64,000 bases of DNA from Armatimonadota bacterium (GTDB taxonomy: Bacteria; Armatimonadota; SYMT01): positions 1,184,001-1,248,000 of the forward strand of contig JAWLHY010000001.1 of assembly GCA_041690135.1 (NCBI GenBank), given 5' to 3'. The notes below the pieces were generated by a model that did no database searches, was not told the origin of the DNA, and was given only the letters and a program-made list of their open reading frames with translations. The position numbers were made by a program, and so were the translations under genes. Position 1 is the stretch's first letter; each line of letters starts with the position of its first letter. Below are positions 6,325-32,870 of the stretch, in pieces.

Positions 6325-6851
6325 CACGCCTTCTCCGCGCCGGGAAGGAACCGGTCCAGCGCGTCGATCCGGTTTCCGTCGGCATCGAACGCCACGACCG
6401 GCACGAAACCGGCGAGTGTTTCTTCCGGTTCGCTTACGGGCTCGTCCTGGACGCACACCCAGGCGTGCCAGGAGGTTGCCGTTTCGCCCAACTTGGCGCC
6501 GACGACCAGTTGGGCTGGTAGCCGCTTCCGCAGAAGCAAAAAGTAGAGTGTAAGGCTGCGCTCCAGGCAGCGCCCTCCAGCACTCCGGGAGAGCGGCTTG
6601 AACATGAGCCAGGCGAGCTTCACCGCCAGGCGTCGTTCGCAGGCGAGTTTGGGGGTCCGGCCGGCCACGCGAGCTACCGCGGGAACCAGACGGGTCAGGG
6701 GAATCCAGCGCTTCAGGCAAGGCATGACCAGGCGCAGCAGCGCCACCTGAGCAGCCAGACCCCACTGCCGCTGCGGAGCGACACAGTCCTGCAGCGCGCG
6801 GATGCGGTGGCGAGTACGGTAGGCGGGGGTGACGAGTAACGCGTGGATCAT
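6324..6851 (-). CDS. Lasso peptide biosynthesis B2 protein (transglutaminase-like leader peptidase)
   Basis: RCLERSL (catalytic Cys), LVVGA, WHAWV (catalytic His). ATGA overlap with the kinase stop. Confidence 0.88.
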   Translation of the reverse strand: MIHALLVTPAYRTRHRIRALQDCVAPQRQWGLAAQVALLRLVMPCLKRWIPLTRLVPAVARVAGRTPKLACERRLAVKLAWLMFKPLSRSAGGRCLERSLTLYFLLLRKRLPAQLVVGAKLGETATSWHAWVCVQDEPVSEPEETLAGFVPVVAFDADGNRIDALDRFLPGAEKA

Positions 6852-7702
6852 GCCGCCCCCTCCTCTGCTCGCAGGCTGGCTTGGGCTACCATTTCGACCA
6901 GTTCCGGCAGATGTTCGAAACCGGGAGTGAAGCGTACGGAATAGACCGGAACCGTGTCCGCCAGCGTGAGATAGTGGTCGATCATACCCACCTTCCGCTG
7001 GTTATCATCCAGGTCGAAACAGTAAGCGTGTTCCAGCAGGGCCGGAAAGGCTTCCGCGGCGGACAGGCGTTGCAGCCGTACTGGGCAGATCGAGTCAGAG
7101 GACTCTTCCCGCTGAAGCACGCAGACGGCGGCAAGCGGAAGATCCTTCGACCCACCTGATTCCTGGTACCACTCCGCCGAGAACGAGTTCGCCGACTCGC
7201 CGAAGTAGGCGCGAGAAGCCGCGCGCAGGCGGAGGGTGAACGGCAGTGACGCGACCCGCGGGGTACCTTCCCCCTGGCGGATCACCACGGCATCGTCGGC
7301 CCACACCGGAAAGCCCGCTCGACCCAGGGCGTAGGCGAGGGTCGACTTGCCGGTCCCGGAGACGGCACAGATGGCCAGCACTCCTCGCGAGCCGATAACG
7401 GCACTGGCATGGAGCGCTTCACAGCCCATAGACTGCAGCACCAGGGGCAACACCGAGTGAAAGAAGGTCTCCCGGATGGCTCCAAGATCTGCCCCCTGCG
7501 TTGGAGTGGCCGTCACAACGCTGCCGTTGAGTGTGTAAGTGTAGGTAGCCAGCCCGGGAAAGTCGATCCGACGTCCATCTTCGCACACCCAACCGTAGGC
7601 GCACACCTCTCCGTCGCTGTCGCGCCACTCTCCCACGGGACGACCCTGCGGGATGGGAAACGATCTCGAAAGGAGCGTTTGTTCAATCGTTAGTTCCAAC
7701 AT
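6848..7702 (-). CDS. HPr-kinase-like lasso precursor kinase (PadeK/PsmK-like)
   Basis: ALHASAV, Walker A SGTGKST, WADD. Likely start MLELTIEQ at 7702; the ORF is open to 7768. Confidence 0.85.
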   Translation of the reverse strand: MLELTIEQTLLSRSFPIPQGRPVGEWRDSDGEVCAYGWVCEDGRRIDFPGLATYTYTLNGSVVTATPTQGADLGAIRETFFHSVLPLVLQSMGCEALHASAVIGSRGVLAICAVSGTGKSTLAYALGRAGFPVWADDAVVIRQGEGTPRVASLPFTLRLRAASRAYFGESANSFSAEWYQESGGSKDLPLAAVCVLQREESSDSICPVRLQRLSAAEAFPALLEHAYCFDLDDNQRKVGMIDHYLTLADTVPVYSVRFTPGFEHLPELVEMVAQASLRAEEGAA

Positions 7703-7782
7703 GGCTTTCTGGATGATCCCGGTATGGGGCGGGCGGGTGAACAGCCAGGATGCTGCCCCGACTGTCACCCGCCCGCGTAGTC

Positions 7783-7944
7783 CTATCTGAGCTCGATTCC
7801 TCGCGGCTTTCGCGGTTCACCGGGATCGCCACCCGTCAGGCTGAGCTTGCCTCCGCCTTGCTGGACGATTTCGCCAACGTGACCGACGTAGGTGAGTTTC
7901 ATCGGCTCCCAATGCTTGGGAGTCTGGTTCTGCTGCTGGTCCAT
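7783..7944 (-). CDS. Putative lasso-type RiPP precursor peptide, 53 aa: MDQQQNQTPKHWEPMKLTYVGHVGEIVQQGGGKLSLTGGDPGEPRKPRGIELR
   Basis: ATG at 7944 preceded by purine-rich AAAGAAAGGGTCGAGAAA, TAG at 7783. Sits between cyclase and kinase, as in paeninodin-type clusters. The WxxMxLxxxG leader resembles the (Y/W)xxPxLxxxG RRE-binding motif. Confidence 0.85.
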   Translation of the reverse strand: MDQQQNQTPKHWEPMKLTYVGHVGEIVQQGGGKLSLTGGDPGEPRKPRGIELR

Positions 7945-7970
7945 TTTCTCGACCCTTTCTTTTCGCGGGA

Positions 7971-9920
7971 TTAGGAGCGTGAGCGGACCCACGCTTCCAG
8001 GTTCAGGACATTCCAGGCCAGTTGTGCATACCGGACCGGGGCGCCTGAAATCTGCTGACTGAGAATCTCTTCGAGTGCGGCCGGTTCGACCACGCCATGG
8101 TCGGCGAGCGCCTGGATGCCGCCCATTCGTTTCCACTGCTGTCCGGCATCGTGAAGAATGCGGGTGGTGAAGAAACTGGTCGCCAGGGCTTTCTTCTGCC
8201 GGCGGAAGCCCTGTCCGGGAAAGCGGCGTTCCAGTGATTCGCGCACCAACCCCTTGCTCCGGTTGCCCCGGTTGAGCACGTCCGGGGGGATGCGGCAGAG
8301 CAGGTCCACCAGGTCGGGGTCCCAGTACGGCTGAGCGTAGCGCGCCCCGATGCGCCGAGAGGCCGTGAACGTCTCCTCCATTTCCAGGGCGATGAGCGGG
8401 TGATCCAGCGTTACGCGGAGTTCCCGAAGGTAGAAGCTCTCCGACTCCGGCTCGGCCGCTGCTGCCGCGGCGATCAGTTGCAGCCGTTCGTCCAGGTCGC
8501 GGCGGAGGTCCAGGTCGGGTGCCAGCCACCCGGGTAGGGCCCGGGCGGCGCGCTGTTTCGCCCGGCGCTCGGAGACCGCCGGAAGGTACGTTTGCACTCC
8601 TTGCGCCAGGGCCGCGCGGGCTCGAGACCGCTTCCAGTATTCGCGGAGAACGGGTCGCAGCCCAAAGGTCCAGAGGACGGCCCGGAGCATGTCCAGTCGG
8701 GCTACCTCGTAGGACCGGTGATTGCTGCGCCAGAGACGATAAAGCCCAAGGAAGTTGAACTCCCGCACCAGGTCGGCGGCGAGTACCGGCGTCACGCCCA
8801 GCCACTCGTCGCCGCCGGCTCCGGTCAGGATGGTGCGACAACCGTTCTCCACGGCCTGGTCTCCGAGGCGCAGATAGGCGGGGAGCCAGAAACTGAGCAG
8901 TGGCGACGGCATGTGGCCCGTGAGTTCCAGAGCCGCTTCCATCAGGTTGCGGTGTCCCGCAGCTTCCTGGATCGGCAGGATCACCTGCGGCAGGTTGAGA
9001 TCGGAGGCGACACCCCGCTGGATCTGCTCTTCGTTGCAGTCTTCATGGGGAAAGACGAGAGAGAAGGCGTGGGGCACCGGAAGCCCCCGTCGCCGGCACG
9101 CCGCCGAGGCTACTGCCGCCACACTGACGCTGTCCAGACCGCCGCTAAGGTAGATTCCTGTTGGGCCGAAACTGATGGACCGCTCGACCACCTGGTCCAG
9201 CAGCGCGTCGAATTGCTCAAGAGCCCCCTCACGCACCCAGTTCACGCGGGTTCCGAGCGGGGCCGGGTCCCAGTAGCGCCGGTAGGTCTCCGTTCGTCCC
9301 TGAATCGCCATGACGTGGCCCGGCGGCACTCTCCGGACGCTCTCATAGAATGTTTCATCCACCTTCGGCCACCGGTGACGCAGGTGGTCCGCGATGGCGG
9401 CGCGGTTGATGCGTTGCGACGCGCCGGGGCTTTGCGTTAGGGCTTCGATGGCGCAGGCGAACCGCACTTCATCGCCCACCCGGGCGTGAAAGAGCGGGGT
9501 GCTGCCCAGCGGGTCCCGCGTGGCTAGAAGCCGGTTCTCCCGAGCGTCATGCACCAGGACCGCGAAGGCTCCTCGAAGCCGGGCGAAGCAGTCCTCGCCC
9601 CACCGGCGGTAGCCCTCCAGGACAATGGAAGCGGCATCAGCACGCGAGGCGCCTTCGAGTTGGAGTTCGCGCGCCAGCGCCTCGCGGTTGTAGAGCGTCC
9701 CCAGCCAGAACACGCGGATCCGGTTGGTGCACGCCTCTTCCCAGGCGGTCCAATCCGGAGCTGATGCCGGAGTTGCTGTGCCGGTAGGACGTGTCGGAGT
9801 GCCAGGGCGGCCGACCAGAACCAGCGGGTCCTGGGGTTGTGACGGCCGGAAGGCAACCCAGGGCTCACCCTGGGGAGTGGCGGCGCGTGGCGGCAAACTG
9901 ATGGATGCGGCGACCGTCAT
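7971..9920 (-). CDS. Asparagine-synthetase-like lasso cyclase (C protein)
   Basis: TRDPLGSTPLF, PP-loop LSGGLDS, TGAGGDEW. Lacks the N-terminal catalytic Cys of glutamine-hydrolysing AsnB. Flanked by RRE and precursor. Confidence 0.88.
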   Translation of the reverse strand: MTVAASISLPPRAATPQGEPWVAFRPSQPQDPLVLVGRPGTPTRPTGTATPASAPDWTAWEEACTNRIRVFWLGTLYNREALARELQLEGASRADAASIVLEGYRRWGEDCFARLRGAFAVLVHDARENRLLATRDPLGSTPLFHARVGDEVRFACAIEALTQSPGASQRINRAAIADHLRHRWPKVDETFYESVRRVPPGHVMAIQGRTETYRRYWDPAPLGTRVNWVREGALEQFDALLDQVVERSISFGPTGIYLSGGLDSVSVAAVASAACRRRGLPVPHAFSLVFPHEDCNEEQIQRGVASDLNLPQVILPIQEAAGHRNLMEAALELTGHMPSPLLSFWLPAYLRLGDQAVENGCRTILTGAGGDEWLGVTPVLAADLVREFNFLGLYRLWRSNHRSYEVARLDMLRAVLWTFGLRPVLREYWKRSRARAALAQGVQTYLPAVSERRAKQRAARALPGWLAPDLDLRRDLDERLQLIAAAAAAEPESESFYLRELRVTLDHPLIALEMEETFTASRRIGARYAQPYWDPDLVDLLCRIPPDVLNRGNRSKGLVRESLERRFPGQGFRRQKKALATSFFTTRILHDAGQQWKRMGGIQALADHGVVEPAALEEILSQQISGAPVRYAQLAWNVLNLEAWVRSRS

Positions 9921-9921
9921 G

Positions 9922-10194
9922 TCAGGCCCTCCGCACCAGGTCGTTCTGGATCAGTTGCTCCAGCGTGGTTTCGACTTCACGGCGGAGCTCGCTCTCATCC
10001 ACCTGGTATTCGCCCTGGAGGCGAGACGGGATCAACTCCGGTGCTACTCCGGCCTGCGTCAGCTCCCAGAGGCGCCCCGCCGTCTCGTTCAGTCCGTATA
10101 TCCGGTTGGTTTCCAGGTGAACCAGGACCGTTTCGGCACCCACCCGGCGCGCGACGACCGCCGGGTTGGCGTACACTCGCTGCTGAAGATCCAT
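9922..10194 (-). CDS. PqqD-family RiPP recognition element (lasso B1)
   Basis: 90 aa: VVARRVGAETVLVHLETNRIYGLNETAGRLWEL...EYQVDESELRREVETTLEQL, a classic PqqD pattern. Confidence 0.92.
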   Translation of the reverse strand: MDLQQRVYANPAVVARRVGAETVLVHLETNRIYGLNETAGRLWELTQAGVAPELIPSRLQGEYQVDESELRREVETTLEQLIQNDLVRRA

Positions 10195-10540
10195 GAAAAC
10201 CCCTCTCCACGGCGCATCGCGACGCCGTCTCGTCTTGCCAAACGACCTGACCACTCGGAGCCGACCGATCGATCGACTGCCGAGCCGTACTGCGTCCGTC
10301 ACAGGTCGGATAGGAGGATCGGTGGATTGGGGCTAAACTAGGGGTGAGACCGGCACCTGTCTGTCTCACCACGGTCGGAGGGCTCCCCCAAGCTCTCCGG
10401 CCGTCCCCTCTTCCGTTCTCCGTTCGGGTCATTCCCAGGGTGGAGAGATCCAAACCCCTAAGGTAGGACAATTCACGGGGGGCTTCGTCCGGGCTACGGC
10501 CAGGCTAGGGTCATGCTTGAGCGGAGAGCTTACAGAAACG

Positions 10541-20706: not shown

Positions 20707-21402
20707 TCAATTCCGTTCGTGCCAGGCATCCTTGACGCGCCGGACGTACTCGGCCAGGCTGGCAGTGGGGTCGTCTTCGAGGATGTACGGCACTCCGATC
20801 ACGAAGATGTCGGCGCCGCGGCGGGCCGCGCTGATACCGTCCGCTACACTGAACGTGCCGACGCCGATGGGGATGCGCATCCGGCCGGCGATTTCATCAA
20901 TGAATAGGGTGGGGTCGCGGTCGGGGATTTCCGCGCGCTGATCGGCTCCGTAGTGGATGTAGGCTGAGTCCACGCCCATCGCCTCGACCTCTCGGGCGCG
21001 GCGCGCCCCTTCAGGGTGGGCGTAAAGGTCGCAGAGGATGCGTACGCCACAATCGCGGCCGGCCTGGATCGCCGTGCGCAGGCTGGCGTCCGAGGCCACC
21101 CCGCAGATCGTGGCGATCCGACCGCCCTGCTCCGCCGTTGCGATGACATACTTCCGGACACCATCCATCATCTTGAAATCGGCGAGGACCGGATGATCCG
21201 GAAACTCCCGTGCCAGTGCCCCAATTACGGGCACTCCCTGGAACGTGAGTAAGGGTGTGCCCACTTCCAACCAATCGACCCCGGCCTTCGCGGCGGCTTC
21301 AGCCACCTTCAATGCGCGGTCGGTCGTCAGGACATCGATGGCGACCTGAACGACGGGCGGCTTGATTTCCAGTGGCGTAACGTGCGGTGCCTCCCCTGGC
21401 AT
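20707..21402 (-). CDS. 3-hexulose-6-phosphate synthase / KGPDC (OMPDC-HUMPS) family protein
   Basis: VQVAID, WLEVGTPL, VLADFKMMDG, GADIFVIG. Confidence 0.82.
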   Translation of the reverse strand: MPGEAPHVTPLEIKPPVVQVAIDVLTTDRALKVAEAAAKAGVDWLEVGTPLLTFQGVPVIGALAREFPDHPVLADFKMMDGVRKYVIATAEQGGRIATICGVASDASLRTAIQAGRDCGVRILCDLYAHPEGARRAREVEAMGVDSAYIHYGADQRAEIPDRDPTLFIDEIAGRMRIPIGVGTFSVADGISAARRGADIFVIGVPYILEDDPTASLAEYVRRVKDAWHERN

Positions 21403-21623
21403 GGCGACCCTCGGGTTTCGATGCGGAGATTGTGCGATAGGTTCTGGTGAAAGTTCACTGCCGGGCAGGGGTTTGCCTTCTTTGACAATGAAATGGGGCG
21501 AGGCTGGGCGGCGTATTAGAATTGGTTAAGCTTTCGCCCCAAGGGAGGGAAGGTCCAGGGTGTAGGCCGTATTCCTACCTAGAAGGTCCTGTTCCCGTAC
21601 GATGCTTTGCCGAGGAGGAACCC

Positions 21624-22223
21624 ATGTCTGAGAGCTCCGGTCCCACCTGTTCGATCGCTCGCGACAGCGGCGGCAGTGTGATGACGCGTCTCAACGGCAT
21701 CTGGCACAAGCCGGCGCTGCAATTCTTTACCGTCATCGTCCTCGCCCACTGGGCGGAGCATCTCGCCCAGGCGTTCCAGATTTACGCGCTGCGCTGGCCG
21801 ATACCCGATTCGCGGGGAGTTCTGGGGCTCTGGTACCCCTGGCTGGTGAAGTCCGAATTGCTCCACTATGCCTACGCTATCGTGATGCTCGTGGGAATCT
21901 GGATGCTGCGACCGGGCTTCGGGGGAACCTCGGCCAAGTGGTGGACCGCCGCGCTGGCGATCCAGTTCTGGCATCATATCGAGCATGCGCTGTTGCAGGG
22001 GCAGGCGATCGTGGGTCAGAACCTCTTTGGTTCGCCGGTGCCGATGAGTATCGCCCAGCTCTGGGTGCCGCGCGTGGAGCTCCACCTGCTCTATAACACC
22101 ATCGTCTTCATTCCGATGGTGGTTGGGATGTACTACCACATGTTTCCGCCGACCGGGGAAGAGGCGCACACGAGCTGCACCTGCGCGTGTGTGGTTCGGC
22201 GACGCACCGCGGAGGCAACGTAA
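21624..22223 (+). CDS. His/Glu-rich integral membrane protein (duplicated HxxEH...E(x)LH motif)
   Basis: HWAEH/ELLH and HHIEH/VELH in about four TM helices. SD GAGGAGG before ATG at 21624. Confidence 0.8.
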   Translation: MSESSGPTCSIARDSGGSVMTRLNGIWHKPALQFFTVIVLAHWAEHLAQAFQIYALRWPIPDSRGVLGLWYPWLVKSELLHYAYAIVMLVGIWMLRPGFGGTSAKWWTAALAIQFWHHIEHALLQGQAIVGQNLFGSPVPMSIAQLWVPRVELHLLYNTIVFIPMVVGMYYHMFPPTGEEAHTSCTCACVVRRRTAEAT

Positions 22224-22226
22224 CAC

Positions 22227-22625
22227 GTGCTCCGTCGTTTCAGGCCGGCACTCTTGGCCGGCGCCTTCTTGCTGGCACTGGGGGTGGGTGGCTGTGGCCG
22301 TCCCACCCCCAACGAGGCTCCGGTGCAGGTGGAGCTCGCAGTGGAGCCGCAACCGCCAGCCCAGGGACCCGCGAAGGTGACGGTCACCCTGGCGGATGGC
22401 GAGGGCGCCCCGGTCACGGGAGCCGAAGTCAAGCTGGAAGGGAACATGTCCCACCCTGGCATGGTACCGGTGTTCGCCGATGCCCGTGAATTGGAGCCGG
22501 GCCGCTACCAGGCCGACCTGGAGTTCACCATGGGCGGGGATTGGTACATCATCGTCACGGCAAAGTTGCCGGATCAGCGGCGGATCGAACGCCAATTCCC
22601 TGTTCCGGGAGTCCGCCCGCGATGA
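22227..22625 (+). CDS. YtkA/FixH-family lipoprotein (putative Cu chaperone)
   Basis: Lipobox VGGC, PVTGAEV, MSHPGM, PGRY, TMGGDW. Confidence 0.82.
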   Translation: MLRRFRPALLAGAFLLALGVGGCGRPTPNEAPVQVELAVEPQPPAQGPAKVTVTLADGEGAPVTGAEVKLEGNMSHPGMVPVFADARELEPGRYQADLEFTMGGDWYIIVTAKLPDQRRIERQFPVPGVRPR

Positions 22626-24124
22626 GCGGAACTTCTGTCCGGCGTCCTTGCCTGGCCGAACCGGACGAAAGGACATCCACCGCCTCCGGATTCGACCTGC
22701 TTCAGGTGCCGTGGGTCAGTCGCTTTCTCCAGTGGCGTCATGCACGCGCCGCGCTCCAATGGCCGCTGCTGGGGGTGGCACTGGTGATGGTGCTCCATGG
22801 CCTATTCGGGCCGACCCTGGCGCCGAAGAACCTGTCCACGCTCCTGGCCTGGGTGCATTACCGGGGCTTTTTGATGGTCGCGTTGATGGCGGCCGGTAAT
22901 CTCTTCTGCTTCGGCTGTCCTTTTGTTCTGGTCCGCGATCTCGGCCGGCGAGTGTTCCGGCCGTCGCGAAACTGGCCACGGCGCCTTCGGAACAAGTGGC
23001 TGGCGGTGGGACTGCTGGTCGCGGTTTTCTTCGTGTATGAAGCGTTCGATCTGTGGGGCTCGCCCTACTGGACCGCCGTCCTGATCCTCGCCTATTTCGC
23101 CGGGGCGTTGGTGATCGACGGCGTATTCAAGCACGCCTCGTTCTGCAAGTTTGTCTGCCCGATCGGTCAGTTCAGCTTCGCCGCGTCGACCCTATCGCCC
23201 TTGGAGGTGCAGGTGCGCAACCCGCGGGTGTGCGAAGCGTGTGCCACCAAAGATTGCATCCGCGGTCGACCGGATCCGGATAACCCCTTTCGCATCCTCC
23301 AGCGCGGGTGTGAGCTCGCCCTCTTCCAGCCGCGGAAGACTGGGAACATGGACTGCACGTTCTGCCTGGACTGCGTGCACGCGTGCCCACACGACAACGT
23401 GGGCGTGATGAGCCGTGTCCCAGGCAGCGAGCTCTGGATCGATCCGCTCCGGTCGGGAATCGGACGGTTCTCGCAGCGCAAGGACCTGTCCGTGCTGATG
23501 GTAGTGTTCGTTTTCGGCGCCCTGCTCAATGCGTTCGGAATGGTGAGCCCCGTCTATGCCGTGCAGGCCTACCTGGCACGCGTGCTCCACCTCACCAGCG
23601 AGGCTGCGGTCCTGGGAGTGTTGTTTGCGCTGGTGCTGGTTCTGGAGCCGGTCCTGTTGCTCGGCTTGGCTGCGTGGGCGACCCGACGCTGGGCGGGAGA
23701 GCGGGCGCCGGGCGGCGGCGAGGGCCTGCTCCAGCTTGCCGCGCGGTACTCCTACGGGTTGGTGCCGCTCGGCTGTGGCGTGTGGCTGGCGCATTACGGC
23801 TTCCACCTGCTCACCGGGTTGTGGACCTTCGTACCCGTGGCGCAGCATGCACTGGTGCAGATGGGCATACCCTGGCTCGGCGAGCCCCAGTGGGGTATGG
23901 GCGGGCTCCCGGCTTCGCGGGTCTACCCGTTGGAAATCGGGATTCTTACCCTGGGCTTTCTGGGTACGCTCCTGGTGACCTATCGCATTGCGGAAAGCGA
24001 CCGGCCCAGGCGAGCCCCTGCGGCGTTCTTTCCCTGGGCGCTTCTTGCCGGCCTTCTGTTCGCCTCCGCCATCTGGCTGCTCTCGCAGCCGATGGAGATG
24101 CGGGGCACGTTCCTGGGAGGCTAG
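22622..24124 (+). CDS. 4Fe-4S-binding polytopic membrane protein (FesM/NapH/FixG-like)
   Basis: CFGCP and CKFVCP membrane motifs, CEACATKDC, CTFCLDCVHACP. ATGA overlap with the upstream gene. Confidence 0.85.
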   Translation: MSGTSVRRPCLAEPDERTSTASGFDLLQVPWVSRFLQWRHARAALQWPLLGVALVMVLHGLFGPTLAPKNLSTLLAWVHYRGFLMVALMAAGNLFCFGCPFVLVRDLGRRVFRPSRNWPRRLRNKWLAVGLLVAVFFVYEAFDLWGSPYWTAVLILAYFAGALVIDGVFKHASFCKFVCPIGQFSFAASTLSPLEVQVRNPRVCEACATKDCIRGRPDPDNPFRILQRGCELALFQPRKTGNMDCTFCLDCVHACPHDNVGVMSRVPGSELWIDPLRSGIGRFSQRKDLSVLMVVFVFGALLNAFGMVSPVYAVQAYLARVLHLTSEAAVLGVLFALVLVLEPVLLLGLAAWATRRWAGERAPGGGEGLLQLAARYSYGLVPLGCGVWLAHYGFHLLTGLWTFVPVAQHALVQMGIPWLGEPQWGMGGLPASRVYPLEIGILTLGFLGTLLVTYRIAESDRPRRAPAAFFPWALLAGLLFASAIWLLSQPMEMRGTFLGG

Positions 24125-24126
24125 GG

Positions 24127-24669
24127 ATGCGGTCTTTGCCTCGGATGTGGACGCAGGGGACAGTGAAGTGGACGCTGACCTTGATGGTGGTGCTGGGGTC
24201 GGGAGGACTTCGCCCGGCCGTCGCCCACGAGGGTCCTCCCTACCCCATCCTGGTCGATCGCCGGGCGGGCCCTTATACCCTCTCGGTTTGGGCGGACCCC
24301 GATGTGGGAATCGGCACCTTCTACATCACCCCCGAGAGCGCCGTCCCCGCCGATCTGGCGGTGGAACTGTGGGTGCAGCCCGCAGATCGGAGAATCCCCG
24401 AAGTCCGCTTCCCCGCCGTCCGTCGGGAGGGTCGTGGCCCGCTCCTATACGTGGCCGAAGCCCGGTTCGCTACAGAGGAGCGGTGGCGGACCCGAGTCGT
24501 GCTGCGAAGTTCGGAAGGCACGGGGGAGATCGAGACGGAAGTGGAGGTGACTCCGCCCGGGCTCGGACCGTTTGATCTGCTCCTCTATGCCGCACCATTC
24601 GCGGCGATCGCCTTCCTGTGGATCAAGGCGGTCATGAACCGGCGCAGTCGGCAGAGTGCCTTACCTTAG
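24127..24669 (+). CDS. Exported protein with predicted mature N-terminal His and C-terminal TM anchor
   Basis: Signal peptide ...AVA|HEGPPYP, WADPDVG, C-terminal hydrophobic helix. Starts 2 nt after the upstream stop. Confidence 0.75.
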   Translation: MRSLPRMWTQGTVKWTLTLMVVLGSGGLRPAVAHEGPPYPILVDRRAGPYTLSVWADPDVGIGTFYITPESAVPADLAVELWVQPADRRIPEVRFPAVRREGRGPLLYVAEARFATEERWRTRVVLRSSEGTGEIETEVEVTPPGLGPFDLLLYAAPFAAIAFLWIKAVMNRRSRQSALP

Positions 24670-24822
24670 AAGAGATTAATCTTCCGCCGATCGACCGCCG
24701 GATGGATTAGCATGGTCGCAAGCTCCACCTCGGAAAAGGCTGTGGGGCGAGGGTGGGAATGGGGCCTCGCGGGCGGACGTGCCCGGCACATCGGGCTATG
24801 GGCAGGGTCATGGTGGACAGCT

Positions 24823-27800
24823 ATGCGCGGAAGGATTGATGCTTGCGGGCGGTGGAAGGCGAACGCGGCGGTCGGCACCATCCCCCTATTGGGCTGTTTG
24901 CTGCTGGCTGGCTGCCCCTCCGCAGAGCAGACAGCCCAAAAGCGGATCGCGCGGGACCCCCAACTGTATGCGCAGGTCGTCACGGCGTTCCACACGGGTG
25001 TGGTGGCTATGCAGGCGAACGATCAGGAGCGTGCAGCGGCCCAGTTGACGCGCGCGACCGAGCTAGCGCCCCACGAAGCGGCGGCTTGGGCCAATCTCGG
25101 TCTGCAGCGGCTGCGAGCGCAGAAGTTCGCACCTGCCGCCGAAGCCCTGGAACGCGCCCGACGGCTGGCGCCGCGTAATGGCGACATCCTGGTCTACTCC
25201 GCGCTTCTCGCCAGGACCCAGGGGAATCCCGAAGAGGCGGCCCGGTACTTGAAGGAAGCCATTGCCGCGGACCCGAGCAATGCGGAAGCCCACGCCCGGC
25301 TGATCGAGCAACTGGAAATGCTATCGGCCCCTGGGAGTGAAGAGGAGATCGCGCGTCACTACGAGCGGATTCTGGAGATCGATCCCGGTAATCTGGTGGC
25401 GCAGCTCGGCCTGGCGCGGCTGGCAGCCAGATCCGGTGATCGGGAAGCGCTGCTGAAGCGCCTGGAAGGCCTGGAAACATCCGCGTCATCGTGGCCCGCG
25501 GAGGCCCAGCAGCGGTTGCAGGCCATCCGCGCGAAGGCGGCCGCGAGTAACCCGCGGTCGGTCGGCACGGACATTCAGATCCTGACCAACGTTCTCAAGG
25601 GCACCGCCCCTTACCGGGAAAGCCAGCGGCTGTTGGGGCAGGGCACCGGCACGCAGGTGGGGACGCCGCTCCAGCGGTTCCTGGTTCTTCCGCAGCCTCC
25701 GGCCACCCCGGCTCCCGCCGACGACAGCCTGGCCTTTAAAGAAGAGTCCCTCACCCCGGAAAACGCTCCCTGGGCCACGGTGTTTCGCCTCCAGCCGACG
25801 GCGCCTCCCGGTGCAACGGGCGAACCGGTTCCCCAGTCAGCTGCGGGCTCGGACGCACCGCCGACGTTGGTTTTCCCCGCCTCCGGCAGCCTGGCTTTGG
25901 GTGCCGGTACGGGCAGGAAGGTCCCTTTTCCCGGGGTCCCCACTTCACCGGACACCGTTCAGCCCATCGATTGGAACGATGACTGGCGGCCCGACTTGCT
26001 CCTGGCCGGGAACGGGGGCGTGCGGCTCCTCCACCAGAATGCACCGGGAGAGTGGATCGACATCACGGCTCAGTCCGGTGTTCCCCTGGGGGTGACGGGC
26101 GCGAGCTATTCCGGTGCATGGGTCGCCGACTTCGACCTCGACGGGGACCTGGATGGGGTGCTCGGCACCGCGGACCGGGAACCAGTGGTCCTCCGCAATA
26201 ATGGAGACGACTCGTGGTCGGTGGCGCGTCCTTTCGGCGGCGTGCGGGGCCTACGAGATTGGGTCTGGGGCGACCTGGATGGCGACGGAGACCCGGATGC
26301 GGCGCTCATCGATGGCCGGAGGCAACTGGTGGTGCTGGTGAATGAGCGCGGCGGGCACTTCCGGACGGCGTCACTGGGGGAAGCCGGCGGCGGCGCCCTG
26401 GCCCTGGCTCTAGCCGATGCCGATCACCAGGGGACCCTTGATGTACTGGTTCTCCGCGGCAGCGGGACCATCGAAGCGGTTTCCAGCCAGGACGACTCCA
26501 CCTGGCGCGCCTCCGAGCTGGTCCGCTGGTCCGGTGCACCGGCACAGGGGCCCGCCCGGGTACTCTGGGAAGACCTGGACAACAACGGCGGCGCCGACCT
26601 GGTGGCATCGGGGCCGGACGGCACGCAGATCTGGCTTCAGGACGCCGGTCGCAAACTCCAACCGTTGGCCGAACAGTTGAATGCCCAGGTATACGCCATC
26701 CACGACATGAATGATGATGGGCGTCTCGACCTGGTGGGCATTTCCAACAACCGTCCCGTCCGCCTGCTGAATCAGGGTACGAAGGACTACCACTGGCAGG
26801 TGCTCCGGCCCCGGAACCAGTTCGTGCGCGAAGGTGACAGTAAGATCAACTCCTTCGGCATTGGGGGTGAGGCGGAGATCCGTGCCGGGCTCCTCGTCCA
26901 GAAGATGCCCATCGATAGCCCACGCGTCCACTTTGGTCTCGGGACCTCTGTCCGGGCCGATGTCGCGAGGATCACCTGGCCGAACGGACAGGTGCAGGGG
27001 GAGTTCGACCTGGTGGCCGACGGCGCGCCTCTGGCGGTCCAGCGGCTGACCGGCTCGTGCCCGTGGCTGTTCGCGCACGACGGGAAATCGGTGAAGTTTG
27101 TAACCGATGTGCTCTGGAAGTCTCCTCTCGGCCTCCGGATCAACGCACAGGATACCGCCGGTGTATCCCAGACGCGTGATTGGGTGAAAGTGCGAGGCGA
27201 CCAGCTAGCGCCGGTGGAAGGTTATTACGATCTGCGGGTCACGGCAGAACTGTGGGAGACCGACTTCTTCGATTACACGTCGCTGCTGGTAGTGGACCAC
27301 CCGGCGGAGACGGAGGTTTTCGTCGATGAGCGTTTCTCGATCCCGCAGCCCCCGCTTGAGGTCCTGGTCGCCGAACCGCCCGTGCCCGTCAGCCGGGCCC
27401 GAGACGAGCAGGGCCGGGACGTTACCGCCATGGTGACTCGCCTCGATGGCCAGTACCTCGACACTTTCCCGCTGGGCCAGTATCAGGGTGTCGCGCAGGA
27501 CCACTATGTCGAGGTGGAACTGCCTCGGGAAAGGGTGGGCCAGGACGGGCGCTCCCCATGGCTGCTCGGCCAGGGGTGGGTTTTCCCCACCGATAGTTCG
27601 ATCAACGTGGCGATCAGCCAGGGTCGCCACCCGCGCCCGGAAGGGTTGAGCCTGGAGGCCCCCGACGGTCGCGGGGGCTGGAAGACGGTGCGAACAGGTC
27701 TTGGCTTTCCGGCTGGGAAGTACAAAACCGTGCGGATCGATCTAGCCGGCGTTTTTCCTCCGGGCTATAAGGGTCCCCACCGCCTCCGGCTGCGCACCAA

Positions 27801-28392
27801 CATGGAAATCTACTGGGACTATCTGGGTGTGACTCGGCTGGCGAAGGCCGGCGCTTCCACGGTCCGCACGCAAGAGCTCTTGCCTGAGACGGCAGAACTA
27901 CGGTACCGGGGATTCTCGAAGCTGTTCCACCCCAAGCGCTCCACACCGGAGACTCCGCTCTACGATGAAATCGCCGGCACTGCTCCCCACTGGCTCGATC
28001 TGGTGGGCTTCTACACCCGCTTTGGGGATGTGCGGGAGTTGGTGACGAAGGTGGAGGATCGCTACGTAATCATGAATGCGGGCGATGAGCTCCGGCTTCG
28101 GTTCCGCGCGCCGGCCCCGCCGCCGGCCGGTTGGAAACGGGACTTCATCTTTGTGAGCGATGGCTGGGATAAGGACGGGAACTTCAACACCAGTTTCTCG
28201 AACACCGTTCTTCCGCTTCCCGCCCACGGTCGGCCCGCCTACGATACGCCCCCGGTTCCCCTCGAGCGGGATCCCGTCTACCGGCGCTACCCGGAGGACT
28301 GGTTGAAGTTCCACACGCGCTACGTCTCCACGGATGAATTCCGGAATATCCTGCGACCACCCGCCGCGACCGCTGGCGAGCGCCGCCCCTAG
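24823..28392 (+). CDS. TPR + FG-GAP repeat + ASPIC/UnbV lipoprotein (CRTAC1-like)
   Basis: Lipobox LAGC, TPR helices, multiple DxDxDGxxD repeats, VHFGLG..ITWPNG, GSCPWLF C-terminal domain. Start uncertain; the ORF is open to 24712. Confidence 0.85.
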   Translation: MRGRIDACGRWKANAAVGTIPLLGCLLLAGCPSAEQTAQKRIARDPQLYAQVVTAFHTGVVAMQANDQERAAAQLTRATELAPHEAAAWANLGLQRLRAQKFAPAAEALERARRLAPRNGDILVYSALLARTQGNPEEAARYLKEAIAADPSNAEAHARLIEQLEMLSAPGSEEEIARHYERILEIDPGNLVAQLGLARLAARSGDREALLKRLEGLETSASSWPAEAQQRLQAIRAKAAASNPRSVGTDIQILTNVLKGTAPYRESQRLLGQGTGTQVGTPLQRFLVLPQPPATPAPADDSLAFKEESLTPENAPWATVFRLQPTAPPGATGEPVPQSAAGSDAPPTLVFPASGSLALGAGTGRKVPFPGVPTSPDTVQPIDWNDDWRPDLLLAGNGGVRLLHQNAPGEWIDITAQSGVPLGVTGASYSGAWVADFDLDGDLDGVLGTADREPVVLRNNGDDSWSVARPFGGVRGLRDWVWGDLDGDGDPDAALIDGRRQLVVLVNERGGHFRTASLGEAGGGALALALADADHQGTLDVLVLRGSGTIEAVSSQDDSTWRASELVRWSGAPAQGPARVLWEDLDNNGGADLVASGPDGTQIWLQDAGRKLQPLAEQLNAQVYAIHDMNDDGRLDLVGISNNRPVRLLNQGTKDYHWQVLRPRNQFVREGDSKINSFGIGGEAEIRAGLLVQKMPIDSPRVHFGLGTSVRADVARITWPNGQVQGEFDLVADGAPLAVQRLTGSCPWLFAHDGKSVKFVTDVLWKSPLGLRINAQDTAGVSQTRDWVKVRGDQLAPVEGYYDLRVTAELWETDFFDYTSLLVVDHPAETEVFVDERFSIPQPPLEVLVAEPPVPVSRARDEQGRDVTAMVTRLDGQYLDTFPLGQYQGVAQDHYVEVELPRERVGQDGRSPWLLGQGWVFPTDSSINVAISQGRHPRPEGLSLEAPDGRGGWKTVRTGLGFPAGKYKTVRIDLAGVFPPGYKGPHRLRLRTNMEIYWDYLGVTRLAKAGASTVRTQELLPETAELRYRGFSKLFHPKRSTPETPLYDEIAGTAPHWLDLVGFYTRFGDVRELVTKVEDRYVIMNAGDELRLRFRAPAPPPAGWKRDFIFVSDGWDKDGNFNTSFSNTVLPLPAHGRPAYDTPPVPLERDPVYRRYPEDWLKFHTRYVSTDEFRNILRPPAATAGERRP

Positions 28393-28431
28393 ATCCGCAG
28401 TAGCCGCCGGTGCGGCGTAGAGTACTCGACG

Positions 28432-30231
28432 ATGAAGCAACATCCGGTCGCCCGAATCGTTTTGACCACCGCGTTTGTGGGGTTGCTGGCTTCCGCCGCC
28501 GTCCTGTCCCGCGTCTATGCCCGCAAGGACCCTGCGAGCGTAAGCCCCCAGGCAGCGGCGGATGCGGTAGCCCGGTACGGTTTCCGCCTGGAGGAAGTCT
28601 CCCGAAAGGCGGGCCTGGATTTCACGCACAGCACGCCCACGCTTCACGCCTCTCTGGCGCACATCATGCCGCAAATCGCGTCCATGGGCGCGGGGGTCTC
28701 CATCGTAGATTTTGACCGCGACGGCTGGAACGACCTGTACGTGACGAACAGCGGCGAAGGGAGTAAGAACCGGCTCTACCGAAACCTGAAAGAGGGCCGC
28801 TTCGAAGACGTGGCCGAGGCCATGGGGGTGGCGGACCTCAACAGCGCCGGAACGGGCGTGTCGATGGGAGCCGTGTGGGGCGACTACGACAACGACGGCT
28901 TCGAAGACCTGTTTGTCTACAAGTGGGGCCGCCCGGAGCTATTCCACAACGAAGGCGGAAAAGCGTTCAAGCGGGTCACCGATGGGGCGGGGCTGCCCGC
29001 GTGGGCCAACTGCAACAGCGCCGTATGGTTCGATTACGACCGTGACGGCAATCTCGACCTTTTCCTGGGCGGCTATTTTCGGGAAGATCTGGACCTCTGG
29101 AACCTGAAGTCCACCCGGATGATGCCCGAGAGCTTTGAATACGCCCGGAACGGTGGCCGGAAGTACTTGCTGCGCAACCTCGGGGAAGGAAAATTCCAGG
29201 ACGTAACCGCGGAAACCGGTTTGGAAAGCCGGCGCTGGGCACTGGCGGTGGGCGCGGCCGATCTTCGCGGGACCGGTTATCCCGATCTGGTAATCGCCAA
29301 CGACTATGGGGTCTCCGAACTGTTCGTCAATGAAGGCGGGAAGCGTTTTCGCGACATCGGTAAGGAATCCGGGATTGGCGAGCGTCCGAAGAGTGGGATG
29401 AACGTTGCCTTTGGAGATATTCAGAACAACGGGAAGTACGCTCTCTACATCACCAACATCAGCGAGGAGGGGGTTCTCGTCCAGGGCAACAACCTCTGGG
29501 TGCCGCATGAAGGCAGCACGGGGAAGAACCCGAAATACGATAACCTGGCGGAGGTGATGGGCGTCGCTCTCGGTGGTTGGAGCTTCGGCGCGCAGTTCGG
29601 TGACCTGAACAACGATGGCCTGCTCGACCTGTTCCTGACTAACGGTTACGTTTCGGATGGTGAGCAGAGCTATTGGTACGACTTTTCCAAGATCGCGGGC
29701 GGGAACACGGCGATCATCGGCGATGCGAAGAACTGGCCGCCGATGGAAGGCCGCAGCCTCTCGGGCTATCAGCGAAAGCATGTGTGGCTCAACGACGGCG
29801 CCGGCAAGTTCAACGACGTGGCTTCTCTCGTCGGCGTTAGCGAGACGTTCGACGGTCGCGCCGTGGCGATGGCGGACTTCTGGAATCGCGGAGCGCTCGA
29901 CGTGGTGGTGGCGCACCAGAAGGGTCCCCTGCTGCTATACAAGAACACCGTCCGGCCGGAGCACGACTGGATCGAGTTCGAGTTGGAGGGAAGCCGGAGC
30001 AACCGCAGCGCTATCGGCGCGGAGGTCCGGGTATTCTGGTCGGGGCAGCAGCAGGTTCAGCAGGTCGCCGGGGCTAGCGGTTTCTGCGCCCAGAACCAGC
30101 GTCGCCTCCACTTCGGCCTGGGCGCGGATGCGAAGATCGAAAAGGTCGTGGTCCGCTGGCCCTCGGGAAAAGAGCAGACCCTCCCCGCCCCTGAACTCCG
30201 CACTCTGCACCGATTGAAGGAGCCGGTATGA
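28432..30231 (+). CDS. CRTAC1-family FG-GAP/ASPIC-UnbV protein (enediyne E4/UnbV-like)
   Basis: MGAGVSIVDFDRDGWNDLYVTNS, repeated DYDNDG, SNRSAIGAEV, LHFGLG, VRWPSG. Confidence 0.88.
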   Translation: MKQHPVARIVLTTAFVGLLASAAVLSRVYARKDPASVSPQAAADAVARYGFRLEEVSRKAGLDFTHSTPTLHASLAHIMPQIASMGAGVSIVDFDRDGWNDLYVTNSGEGSKNRLYRNLKEGRFEDVAEAMGVADLNSAGTGVSMGAVWGDYDNDGFEDLFVYKWGRPELFHNEGGKAFKRVTDGAGLPAWANCNSAVWFDYDRDGNLDLFLGGYFREDLDLWNLKSTRMMPESFEYARNGGRKYLLRNLGEGKFQDVTAETGLESRRWALAVGAADLRGTGYPDLVIANDYGVSELFVNEGGKRFRDIGKESGIGERPKSGMNVAFGDIQNNGKYALYITNISEEGVLVQGNNLWVPHEGSTGKNPKYDNLAEVMGVALGGWSFGAQFGDLNNDGLLDLFLTNGYVSDGEQSYWYDFSKIAGGNTAIIGDAKNWPPMEGRSLSGYQRKHVWLNDGAGKFNDVASLVGVSETFDGRAVAMADFWNRGALDVVVAHQKGPLLLYKNTVRPEHDWIEFELEGSRSNRSAIGAEVRVFWSGQQQVQQVAGASGFCAQNQRRLHFGLGADAKIEKVVVRWPSGKEQTLPAPELRTLHRLKEPV

Positions 30232-31103
30232 CCACCGAACCTGCCAGCGTGACGGTTTCCACCCCGGCGACGGCCGGCGGTGAGGCGGTCGTCCCCGAAA
30301 AGAGCAAGCCGAAGTTCGATCAGCGTTTCGTGGCGCCGATCTTCATCACGCTGGTGCTCATCGGCGCGCACTTCTCTGTCGGCGCCCTGGAGAGCCCGTG
30401 GAAGACGGCGCTGGCCATTGTCAGCTCGATTCTGACGGAGATCCTGCTCGGCCGGATCTTCACGGGCAAGACCCCTCACCTGGCCAGCGCGTACATCTCC
30501 GGCATCAGCGTGGGCATCCTGGTCCGATCGCCCTTCTTCTGGCCCTATGCCCTGTGCAGCATCATCAGCATCGCCTCCAAGTACGTGCTGCGGGTACAGG
30601 ACCGGCACCTCTGGAACCCGTCGAACTTCGGCATTGCGGCATTGCTGTTCCTGGCTCCCCAGGCTGTCGCCAGTCTCAGCATCCAGTGGGGCAACTCCAT
30701 TGGCGCTATGCTGGTGATCTGGACCCTCGGGTCGATCATCATCTACCGTTTGAAACGGTTCCACATCTGCGTCACCTACGTGATCTCTTTCCTGTTGCTG
30801 GCCGGTCTCCGCACCGCCATCACTGGGCACAGCTTCTGGGCCGAGGTCGCGCCGATTACGGGTCCGATGTACCAGTTGTTCACCTTCTTCATGATCACCG
30901 ACCCCAAGACTACGGTGAGTTCGAAGAAGGGGCAGATCGTGGTGGTGGTGCTGGTGGCCGTGGTCGAGTGCATCTTCCGGTTGTTCCAGAATGTTCACGC
31001 ACCCTACTACGCATTGTTCCTGGTGGGCCCCGCGGCGAACTATCTCGAGATCGTGATGAAGAAGCGCGACGGAGCCGCGCCTGCCAACTTGCAAACGGCA
31101 TAA
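30228..31103 (+). CDS. RnfD/NqrB-like membrane protein (enediyne E5/UnbU-like)
   Basis: SKYVLR..RHLWNPSNFG and FFMITDPKTT. ATGA overlap with the UnbV-like gene. Confidence 0.8.
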   Translation: MTTEPASVTVSTPATAGGEAVVPEKSKPKFDQRFVAPIFITLVLIGAHFSVGALESPWKTALAIVSSILTEILLGRIFTGKTPHLASAYISGISVGILVRSPFFWPYALCSIISIASKYVLRVQDRHLWNPSNFGIAALLFLAPQAVASLSIQWGNSIGAMLVIWTLGSIIIYRLKRFHICVTYVISFLLLAGLRTAITGHSFWAEVAPITGPMYQLFTFFMITDPKTTVSSKKGQIVVVVLVAVVECIFRLFQNVHAPYYALFLVGPAANYLEIVMKKRDGAAPANLQTA

Positions 31104-31177
31104 GCTGGTTAGCTTCCGGTTGACATCGTAATTCGCGCGGTCGGCCGCTGTACAGTGCAGAGGCGCAGGCAGCAAAT

Positions 31178-31816
31178 ATGGCTTCGGAACCCGTGTATCG
31201 GAGTTACGGCGACTGGGACTTCGTCGAATTCCAGGGGGTTATCACTTCTCTCCCGGCTGCCCACATCGAGGATCACCGCCGGGTGCTCGAGCGCGATGGA
31301 AGCACCGCGGAGAGATGGGGACTTGAGGCGTTTCTAAACCACGAGCATCCCGCAAGTTCACAAGCGTCGAGTCGAGAGGGCGTACGCAGCCTGCTGGATA
31401 TGGCGGCCGAAATGGGCGAGGCACTCCAGCACGCCTGGCCGGACCGCCACTTTCATGTTTTCTGCGTGCTGGGGAGCGACTACCTGACGTTCTACCAGGC
31501 GGACGCGGATGCGGATGCTCCCGCCACGGAAGTCAGCGAGTCTCGCCCCGCCCATTCGGTGTGGTCCAACGATCCGGACCTCCGGTGGTGTGATGCCTGC
31601 GGCGGCGACCAGGCATTCACTCCAGTGGCAGTGTCCGACCCGGAGTTTCCGATGCTGGCATGGGCATGTTGCCGGGTCTGTGGTCATGAGATGGTTGCGA
31701 CCGAGTGCCGCGTCACGTTCCGTGTTGGGCCAGGGATTCAACAGGATTTCGTGATCGGTGGCTACGTTCCCCAACCTCACGCCCCTACCTGGAAGGTCGC
31801 GAATCGCCAGGTGTAA
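31178..31816 (+). CDS. Hypothetical protein with C-terminal CxxC...CxxC Zn-ribbon
   Basis: 212-aa ORF with CDACGG and CRVCGH. Confidence 0.6.
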   Translation: MASEPVYRSYGDWDFVEFQGVITSLPAAHIEDHRRVLERDGSTAERWGLEAFLNHEHPASSQASSREGVRSLLDMAAEMGEALQHAWPDRHFHVFCVLGSDYLTFYQADADADAPATEVSESRPAHSVWSNDPDLRWCDACGGDQAFTPVAVSDPEFPMLAWACCRVCGHEMVATECRVTFRVGPGIQQDFVIGGYVPQPHAPTWKVANRQV

Positions 31817-31910
31817 GGGTTTCGGGGCAGAACTTTAACTTTCTTGATCAGGTTCTGCACCGTTCACGGATCCCGCTTAGCCAACTCGTAGCAGGCTCAA
31901 GAGCGCGGGG

Positions 31911-31970
31911 TTCCAACTTTCAACCTTCAACTTTTGACTTTCAACCTTCAACCTGCCAACCTGCCAACCC
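31911..31970. repeat. Heptamer/octamer tandem repeat (TTCAACC / TGCCAACC)
   Basis: ttccaact-ttcaacc-ttcaact-tttgact-ttcaacc-ttcaacc-tgccaacc-tgccaacc. The same motif recurs at 33207-33375. Confidence 0.8.
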
Positions 31971-31997
31971 TGATCCAGTACGGGCGAACCGTACCCC

Positions 31998-32870
31998 TCA
32001 CGGACTACAAGAGTAGACATCGTACTGGTTGTCCCGGTCGGAGACCCAGGTGAGGGTACGCCCGTCCGGCTTCCAGGCGGGTGAGAAGTCATAACCGGGG
32101 TAGTCGCTCACGTTGCGGAGACCGGACCCGTCCAGATTGACCACGTAAATCTCCGGGTTGGTGTCTCGCATGCTCACGAAGGCCATCCGCTTGCCGTCCG
32201 GAGACCAGGCCGGGCTCACGTCGGTGGCGGGATGTTCCGTGAGGCGCTTGACGTCGGTGCCGTCCGCCGCCATCACGTAGATCTCGAAGTTGCCGTCCCG
32301 GTTGCTGTTGAAGGCGATCTGCTTCCCATCCGGCGACCAGCGAGGATACTGCTTGAGGCTGGGGTCGGAGGTAAGGCGCCGGAGATTGCCGCCATCAGGG
32401 GCGGCCTGGTAGATCTCCTGTGTCTTGTCTTTGGTAGTGGTAAAGAGGAGGCTCTTCCCGTCGGGCGACCAGGCCGGGAAGTTCTCGAACGATTTACCGG
32501 GAATAGGCACCAGGTGCTTGCGCGCGGAGCCGTCCTCCGCCATCTCATGAATGTCCAGTTCCCCATCGGTACCGGACTGCGTGACGTGGATGAACACCAG
32601 ACGTTTGCCGTCCGGCGACCAGGATGGCGACCGCTCCACGGGATCCTTCGTTAACACTCGCCAAGCGGCCGCACTGGGGTCGAATTCCAACACGGCAATC
32701 CCGATCCGGCCCGTCTGGTGATAATAGCTACAGGCCAGCTTCTTACCATCGGGCGACCAGGCCAGGTCTTCCTTTCGCTTGCCATCGTGCGTGAGGCGAG
32801 TGATGGGGCTTGCGGCTGTGATGGGTCCGAAGCCCAATGCCACCATGAGGGTGCAGAGGGCGCCAACCAT
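31998..32870 (-). CDS. TolB-like PD40 beta-propeller protein
   Basis: Six P.WSPDGK-type repeats and SNRDGNFEIYVM. Signal-like N-terminus; start uncertain. Confidence 0.9.
   Translation of the reverse strand: MVGALCTLMVALGFGPITAASPITRLTHDGKRKEDLAWSPDGKKLACSYYHQTGRIGIAVLEFDPSAAAWRVLTKDPVERSPSWSPDGKRLVFIHVTQSGTDGELDIHEMAEDGSARKHLVPIPGKSFENFPAWSPDGKSLLFTTTKDKTQEIYQAAPDGGNLRRLTSDPSLKQYPRWSPDGKQIAFNSNRDGNFEIYVMAADGTDVKRLTEHPATDVSPAWSPDGKRMAFVSMRDTNPEIYVVNLDGSGLRNVSDYPGYDFSPAWKPDGRTLTWVSDRDNQYDVYSCSP

Follow-up and report, generated by a model that had tools for sequence, protein, structure and literature searches.

A conserved envelope gene cluster in an Armatimonadota bacterium sets a putative copper-type metal and redox module beside a separable UnbV/UnbU-like module

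What do seven tightly packed envelope genes do, and do they act as one system? The question is raised by positions 21624 to 31103 of a 64,000-nucleotide stretch of the Armatimonadota bacterium assembly GCA_041690135.1 (contig JAWLHY010000001.1, positions 1,184,001 to 1,248,000, forward strand), here called the window. From the sequence alone, an earlier note had proposed that these genes form a self-contained, undescribed extracytoplasmic metalloenzyme system. Our analysis recovers a conserved cluster, for which a literature search found no description, and resolves its genes into two separable modules, A (g1 to g4) and B (g5 to g7), rather than one unit. We favour, tentatively and with confidence somewhat short of even, a reading in which A serves for copper capture and redox handling, resembling CopC/CopD plus CcoG, and is functionally coupled to B, a machine of the UnbV/UnbU type.

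All seven genes lie on the plus strand. Module A opens with g1 (21624..22223), which is preceded at its ATG by GAGGAGGA and encodes a 199-aa four-helix membrane protein without a described family. It continues with a YtkA-family lipoprotein with a lipobox cysteine (g2, 22227..22625), a 500-aa polytopic polyferredoxin of the NapH/CcoG/‘FesM’ type (g3, 22622..24124) and an exported beta-sandwich protein with a mature N-terminal histidine and a C-terminal membrane anchor (g4, 24127..24669). Module B comprises a lipoprotein with TPR and an FG-GAP propeller carrying an ASPIC motif (g5, 24823, or ATG 24712, to 28392), an exported CRTAC1/UnbV-type FG-GAP propeller (g6, 28432..30231) and a UnbU-type integral membrane protein that is probably a distant member of the RnfD/NqrB superfamily (g7, 30228..31103). 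Successive junctions from g1 to g7 are 3 nt, ATGA, 2 nt, 42 nt, 39 nt and ATGA, the g4-g5 gap being 42 nt with the g5 start at 24712 and 153 nt with that at 24823; open reading frame (ORF) positions and junctions match those given earlier. A Pfam scan of the seven ORFs detected families only in g2, g5, g6 and g7, in agreement with the earlier domain calls (YtkA, TPR, FG-GAP, UnbV_ASPIC, NQR2_RnfD_RnfE), and none in g1, g3 and g4. Directly 3' of g7 lies a 212-aa ORF with several cysteine pairs (31178-31816, plus strand), which has no family and is conserved in 0 of the 80 loci described below.

To what extent is this arrangement shared? One genome per species was scanned, which yielded no fewer than 579 encoding stretches; the 80 best loci were retained, all but two titled Acidobacteriota, mostly of one class and close kin. 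Genes matching g4 were present in 80 of them, g2 in 74 and g1 in 72. A is followed by B, contiguously and on one strand, in 60 of the 80, a recurrence of gene order that places the cluster far beyond chance; B lies elsewhere in the locus in four, A stands without B in five, and in 11 the contig ends too early for the order to be judged. Thus the first four and last three genes, whose failure to co-occur would have spoken against the earlier proposal, do cluster in other genomes, and the view of a conserved, undescribed envelope cluster stands. Where a locus lacks g1, the gene is found elsewhere in the genome (5/5), and g6-g7 orthologues are encoded elsewhere in four of the five genomes with an A-alone locus, the fifth having only a 30-35% identical pair. 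In public metagenomes, relatives at E <=0.001 numbered 6041 among 8000 scored candidates for g3 and 5269 among 5344 candidates for g1, and an exhaustive g1 search gave 533 cluster representatives at the same threshold. Among the 120 matches listed for each, identity to the query was 57-84% (g3) and 66-92% (g1), and nearly all matches listed with organism names were acidobacterial. Relatives thus number in the thousands, the named ones mostly from a dominant soil phylum, and two of the seven families are without annotation.

In Terriglobia the cluster usually has two further genes: an AlgE-type porin (PF13372), directly 5' of g1 in 34 of the 80 loci, and a third CRTAC1-type FG-GAP/UnbV_ASPIC propeller 3' of g7 in 45 of the 80 (L003:7088-8785, L010:7454-8824, L001:17570-19408 and orthologues). 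Both are absent from the window. A relocated g1 directly follows an AlgE-type porin in two of three regions fetched (L109, L110). In the genome of the window itself (G000), an AlgE-type porin of 45% identity is encoded on a different contig (L112, G000:C3, 7592-10048), where a 137-aa globin gene follows and PAS/GAF sensor kinases adjoin.

Dependence between the modules was assessed in 301 genomes of the window phylum. A g7 match was present in 46 of these, including five of the six of the same family as the window, and orthologous g3 (>=61% identity) in only three, namely the window's genome, G101 and G120, and in none of those six. PSD1, PSCyt2, DUF1501 and DUF1559 domains occur among the 37 other window ORFs; we take these as planctomycete markers and on this basis use the label ‘planctomycete’ for the window phylum. 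In the 12 planctomycete B loci fetched, g6 is directly 5' of g7 in 10 and g5 is present in eight; in the remaining two, the upstream g6 is separated from g7 by a few kb that include a paralogous propeller. No A genes were found in any of the 12. Since these loci lack A, and A and B lie apart in G101 and G120, B works without A. The idea of a single self-contained seven-gene system is therefore not sustained: most of the 46 g7-positive genomes carry B and no A, five of the 80 loci carry A and no B, and Terriglobia clusters usually carry the porin and third propeller as well. What survives of the overall inference is a conserved and undescribed cluster with a UnbU-like protein and a copper flavour.

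Linkage between the modules takes more than one form. A second sample, an even selection of 251 genomes around G001, contained five g3 orthologues. The order at locus L105 (G333) is g5-g6-g7-g1-g2-g3-g4, and at L104 (G339) a divergent g6'/g7' pair (27-29% identity) lies directly 5' of g1-g4. A and B might be neighbours by descent or co-regulation only, without shared function, since each module also occurs alone and the 80 loci are mostly of one class. In a quick g6 tree the window groups with its own family (SH-aLRT, a Shimodaira-Hasegawa-like likelihood ratio support, of 93), and in the g3 tree it takes no resolved position, outside the Terriglobia clade. The approximately unbiased (AU) test on g6 did not reject a grouping of the window with the acidobacterial clade (p 0.576; the held-together tree is 2.9 log-likelihood units better). 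As the test cannot separate the two, one ancestral A-B arrangement could have spread by descent or transfer, and the idea of an A-B union arising in the window separately from that in Acidobacteriota, suggested by the quick tree, was dropped. Still, neighbourhood without shared function is improbable in view of the three different linked orders, the divergent UnbV/UnbU pair also linked to A (L104), a protein in which g1 is fused to a propeller (P0272, below) and another, P0395, in which a g7-like gene and g1 are merged or adjacent.

What, then, might module A do? Conserved positions in g1 (42 sequences) are H42-x-x-E45-H46, E78-x-x-H81, H117-x-x-E120-H121 and R150-x-E152-x-H154. An AlphaFold2 (AF2) model shows four confident helices (pLDDT, the model's per-residue confidence, 93) with the conserved histidines and glutamates gathered at one end. 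Fusions and the positive-inside rule point to both protein ends being cytoplasmic, which would place H42, E45, H46, E78, H81, H117, E120, H121, E152 and H154 at the periplasmic helix ends of the model. Foldseek returned nothing for g1 at E 1e-3 or better, only generic helical bundles, and the best VIA Z of 9.4 is under the tool's meaningful level for such bundles; DUF6008 (PF19471) weakly matched four of the 42 relatives (best E 1.6e-4) and not g1 itself. g2 is a YtkA protein (PF13115, 57.7 bits against a cut-off of 25.9, E 1.9e-15), and the MSHPGM pointed out earlier proved to be a conserved M-x-H-x-G-M. In g3, two CX2-3CP and two 4Fe-4S-type cysteine motifs are conserved in 81 sequences, and the C-terminus forms a conserved extra multi-helix hydrophobic membrane domain; close relatives are named FesM, polyferredoxin, ferredoxin or 4Fe-4S binding protein in public sources.

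The g4 signal peptide ends in ..AVA|H, and the N-terminal histidine of the mature protein, predicted in the earlier note, occurs without exception in the 40 aligned orthologues, within the motif H-x-G-P-P-F/Y-P-I. The AF2 model of g4 is a beta-sandwich with an anchor helix (pLDDT 85), for which the best fold match is H. pylori CrdA (Foldseek E 6.5e-6; VIA Z 11.8, root-mean-square deviation 2.3 over 100 residues), followed by a DUF4426 protein and by HftA, Tp34 and FtrA/P19 (Z 9.8-10.9). CrdA, HftA, Tp34 and FtrA/P19 are copper or copper/iron proteins; these best matches, those to the P19/FtrA fold (Z 9.8-10.7) included, score just over generic FN3 domains (Z up to 9.7). CopC (PF04234) matched neither g4 nor its 39 aligned orthologues at E up to 1. 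A weak YtkA lead came from Atlas (14% of members in the cluster ranked 25th), and an hhalign probability of 6% led to the rejection of a paralogous relation between g4 and the YtkA protein g2.

Fusion proteins tie these components together. P0398 (362 aa) consists of g1, a helix, a CopC domain (PF04234, 5e-13) and a further helix, and P0288 (436 aa) of a g4-like exported domain with N-terminal histidine and anchor, followed by g1. PcoC and PcoD are fused as YcnJ, which is implicated in copper import according to the part of PMC7558416 available, and the P0398 and P0288 fusions, by analogy, mirror this arrangement; the findings also point to a CopD-like role for the new small membrane protein family of g1. 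P0272 (801 aa) joins g1, one more helix and a beta-rich stretch to an FG-GAP/UnbV_ASPIC propeller. Three further proteins, P0394 (g1 with a DUF1702 C-end), P0395 and P0397, resemble merged ORFs and served as adjacency hints only. A metal and redox character of A is suggested by the M-x-H-x-G-M of YtkA, the N-terminal histidine and fold matches of g4, the P0398 and P0288 fusions, the Fe-S and CX2-3CP motifs of g3, and the clustered histidines and glutamates of the g1 model. The copper flavour earlier ascribed to the first four genes thus gained evidence from the g4 fold matches, the g1-CopC fusion and the YtkA Met/His motif.

Module B has clearer relatives. In g5, Pfam finds TPR families, FG-GAP_3 (5e-20, 72.3 bits) and UnbV_ASPIC (8e-7, 29.3 bits); its C-terminal part of ~450 aa has no family and gave no lead from Atlas. 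Corresponding values for g6 are 2e-40 (137.7 bits, FG-GAP_3) and 1e-20 (73.7 bits, UnbV_ASPIC), and blastp aligns it with Streptomyces UnbV at 28% identity over 588 aa (E 1e-54). Its only invariant histidines are H66 and H560, and on that count a NosZ-like identity, in which the propeller would carry a His-rich copper hub, was rejected. g7 matches NQR2_RnfD_RnfE (PF03116) at 34.8 bits against a cut-off of 27.7 (E 1.5e-8), through residues 158-279 of its C-terminal half only, and falls far below the NCBIfam cut-offs for rnfD (23.5 against 207) and RsxD (24.3 against 415). The covalent-FMN threonine motif of RnfD/NqrB is S/T-G-A-T, and none was seen in g7 by eye, without alignment to RnfD/NqrB. 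Against Streptomyces UnbU, g7 shows 31% identity over 265 aa (E 1e-20, blastp), and tblastn hits at 27.8-31.4% identity over 75-90% of g7 are annotated as enediyne biosynthesis protein (UnbU) or RnfD. A CRTAC1 gene precedes UnbU in L081 and L082 as g6 precedes g7 in the window, and in plasmid records the UnbV/UnbU pair lies within DUF1702-DUF1702-CRTAC1-UnbU-PKS-thioesterase cassettes (PKS, polyketide synthase). On this sequence evidence g6 and g7 are genuine homologues of UnbV and UnbU, the E4/E5 pair of enediyne biosynthesis, and the earlier UnbU-like label for g7 was correct.

How might the two modules be joined in function? According to the reading that we favour, A would be a copper-type metal capture and redox unit, like CopC/CopD (YcnJ) with a CcoG-type reductase, iron being a less likely metal than copper. 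Metal would be bound by two periplasmic beta-sandwich proteins, g2 through its Met/His site and the anchored g4 through its free N-terminal histidine; the polyferredoxin g3 would set the redox state of the metal by carrying electrons between it and the cytoplasmic face; and g1 would offer a His/Glu-lined site at the periplasmic face, receiving metal or passing it on. B is a propeller and membrane-protein pair of the UnbV/UnbU type, plus the TPR-propeller lipoprotein, and A would be an optional add-on that may serve it with a metal centre, reducing power or both. Coupling is suggested by the 60 contiguous loci, the alternative order at L105, the divergent pair at L104, the P0272 fusion, and the g6-g7 orthologues encoded elsewhere in four of the five genomes whose A locus lacks B. 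We infer the metal, the substrate, the direction of supply and the physical contacts between A and B from these observations on homology, motifs, folds, gene order, fusions and separability.

Several results weigh against this reading. B does not need A, given g7 in 46 and orthologous g3 in 3 of the 301 genomes; A and B are 1.9 Mb apart in G101 and 0.6 Mb apart in G120; the A-alone loci extend 7.3 kb or more downstream without reaching B; and G405 and G549 have g3 without g7, with g3 on short contigs of assemblies of unknown completeness. The 80 loci are close kin, so that 60 of 80 does not represent 60 independent events, and a shared origin of the window's cluster with the acidobacterial one fits the AU test, which does not reject it. 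On the metal side, the P19/FtrA fold matches of g4 are as compatible with iron as with copper, and at sequence level this protein matches none of CopC, YtkA and P19; with only two invariant histidines, g6 has no obvious metal site in its propeller; Rfam and window ORF scans turned up no regulator, riboswitch or ATPase specific to copper; and the porin-g1 pairs fit a plain uptake role.

That uptake role is the core of the main alternative, which we regard as possible though doubtful, in which A is an autonomous metal importer, running from the outer-membrane porin through the periplasmic binders g2 and g4 to g1 as inner-membrane permease, with g3 handling electrons, analogous to FtrABCD/P19-FTR1 or CopCD, and B is a separate periplasmic capture or processing device pairing with whichever importer is available: A here, elsewhere an SsuA-type ABC (ATP-binding cassette) importer. 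The porin directly 5' of g1 at 34 of the 80 loci, and its staying beside g1 outside the cluster (L109, L110), speak for it, as do the P19/FtrA/FetP-like fold of g4 and the polyferredoxin g3. An SsuA-family binding protein (140 bits, under the 163.5 cut-off), accompanied by an ABC ATPase and permease, flanks B in six of the 12 planctomycete loci (L090, L091, L092, L093, L097, L101), and such a binding protein also adjoins B at one Bryobacteraceae locus (L084). It was not found in G000, in five of five A-then-B Terriglobia genomes or in G333, and was found in three of four genomes with A and B apart. These numbers are small, however, and the genomes related; G101 has A as well as an ABC set next to B. 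A pure importer, moreover, gives no reason for the g1-propeller fusion P0272, g1 has four helices only, and neither FTR1 nor CopD families were detected in the seven genes or the other window ORFs. In non-anammox Planctomycetota, an excerpt of PMC12758564 describes a CRTAC1-family FG-GAP gene between or beside hydrazine-synthase subunit homologues, with two ABC substrate-binding genes downstream; as far as that excerpt goes, this is another propeller-plus-ABC pairing.

A more specific variant of the favoured coupling, which we consider unlikely, would have g1 and g4 form a hitherto undescribed membrane-bound copper redox centre with His/Glu and N-terminal His ligands, g2 acting as chaperone and g3 as electron wire, bolted to the UnbV propeller and UnbU and oxidising a hydrocarbon or lipid carried in the membrane, by chemistry of the same type as that of E4/E5 on the enediyne polyene. 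If true, it would provide a first mechanistic handle on E4/E5 and a new envelope metalloenzyme class common in soil Acidobacteriota.

Several features of the surrounding DNA were recorded alongside. About 60-100 nt upstream of g1, loci including L003, L018, L042, L048, L049 and L074 carry a motif TAATAyAA..yTATTGACC followed after 15-17 nt by the CRP-like palindrome TGTGATCGTGGTCACA. ACTATTGA occurs in 33 of 70 regions upstream of g1 and ATTATTGA in 20 of 70, and a perfect TGTGA-N6-TCACA in 11 of 69 upstream regions compared with 4 of 1380 control windows; the conserved motif is absent from the window's own upstream region. In L012, L013, L015, L021, L022, L046 and L055 the leader reads GTGGGA ... 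TCCCAC ... GGGGTGGGA just 5' of the g1 ATG, and, as judged by eye, these elements might pair into alternative hairpins that would hide the ribosome-binding site. Rfam gave no match upstream of g1 in L048 and L012 or over window positions 21000-32000, and a promoter and terminator scan was not above shuffles. Around B, NanE- and ROK-like genes lie directly 3' of g5 in L094, a DHDPS/NanA-like gene directly 5' of g6 in L102, and glycoside hydrolases beside B in L093 and L095; these neighbours are sugar-catabolic surroundings of B in some planctomycetes. Elsewhere in the window, on the minus strand (3311-10302), is a lasso-peptide-like set comprising an ABC transporter (3311-5716), a transglutaminase-like core (6324-6851), an asparagine-synthase-like gene (7971-9920) and a PqqD-like gene (9922-10302).

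Which known systems does the cluster resemble? With CopC/CopD (PcoC/PcoD) and YcnJ, it shares a beta-sandwich metal binder beside or fused to a His-bearing membrane protein (P0398, P0288); it differs in that g1 has no more than its four helices and no CopD family match, and g4 no CopC family match. The polyferredoxin of the iron-uptake system FtrABCD is FtrD, and with FtrABCD, P19-FTR1 and FetMP the cluster has in common a probable P19/FtrA-like fold of g4 and a membrane polyferredoxin in the operon. The likeness is at fold level only; the window lacks an FTR1 permease and, in profile scans of its ORFs, a cupredoxin. To FesM of Synechococcus sp. PCC 7002, a membrane iron-sulfur protein in the part of PMC9003380 available, the link is the name that public sources give to close g3 relatives, and the organisms with g3 here are non-phototrophs.

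Towards CcoG/FixG (ccoGHIS), NapH and NosR, the likeness lies in the g3 membrane protein with its two 4Fe-4S-type and CX2-3CP motifs and, for ccoGHIS, in its adjoining the FixH/YtkA-like Ig-fold protein g2. YtkA/CtaK has a role in oxidase biogenesis. On these grounds A could assist, as a unit of the FixGH/Cta type, in assembling a haem-copper oxidase or some other known cuproenzyme whose genes lie elsewhere, and CcoG-like proteins do act in oxidase biogenesis. The accessible part of PMC7558416, which reports this, describes CcoG as a membrane protein with two 4Fe-4S clusters and cupric reductase activity, carrying a C-terminal periplasmic Ig-like domain and encoded in a ccoGHIS context. g3 lacks that domain and has additional membrane helices instead, and scores 35 bits against the NapH/MauN profile, far under the cut-off of 213. 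Profile scans found no oxidase, rnf or nqr family among the 37 other window ORFs, nor FixI, FixS, ccoH, ccoI or ccoS, so that the earlier statement that no such oxidase or rnf/nqr gene is nearby was borne out, the cluster has no oxidase, nap or nos context, and nothing in the window ORFs suggests an oxidase-assembly locus. Conserved neighbours in the 80 loci are propellers, UnbU and the porin, and we regard an assembly role as highly improbable.

For module B, the RnfD/NqrB resemblance of g7 stands without other rnf/nqr subunits in the cluster or the other window ORFs. Human CRTAC1 (PDB 9etn), the only solved structure matched by the g6 sequence (E 6.8e-12, over ~100 residues), has the same combination of FG-GAP propeller and ASPIC motif but is a eukaryotic matrix protein without a membrane partner. 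The enediyne UnbV/UnbU pair shares with g6 and g7 homology, order, tight junction and motifs such as RH-x-x-NPSNFG and MITDP-x-TT. The three extra genes of the enediyne cassette are termed ‘of unknown function’ in the portion of PMC9992847 available, and homologues of UnbV/UnbU accompany the enediyne polyketide synthase (PKSE) as conserved partners that still await an explanation. The setting differs: no PKS or DUF1702 (UnbL) family was found among the window ORFs, an UnbL query had no match in the window, and the thioesterase of the PKSE cassette is absent from it, whereas the window pair is accompanied by the TPR-propeller lipoprotein and module A. An UnbV/UnbU pair that stands apart from PKS genes and is repeatedly linked with either a copper-style redox module or an SsuA-type importer offers a new, testable entry to the role of the pair.

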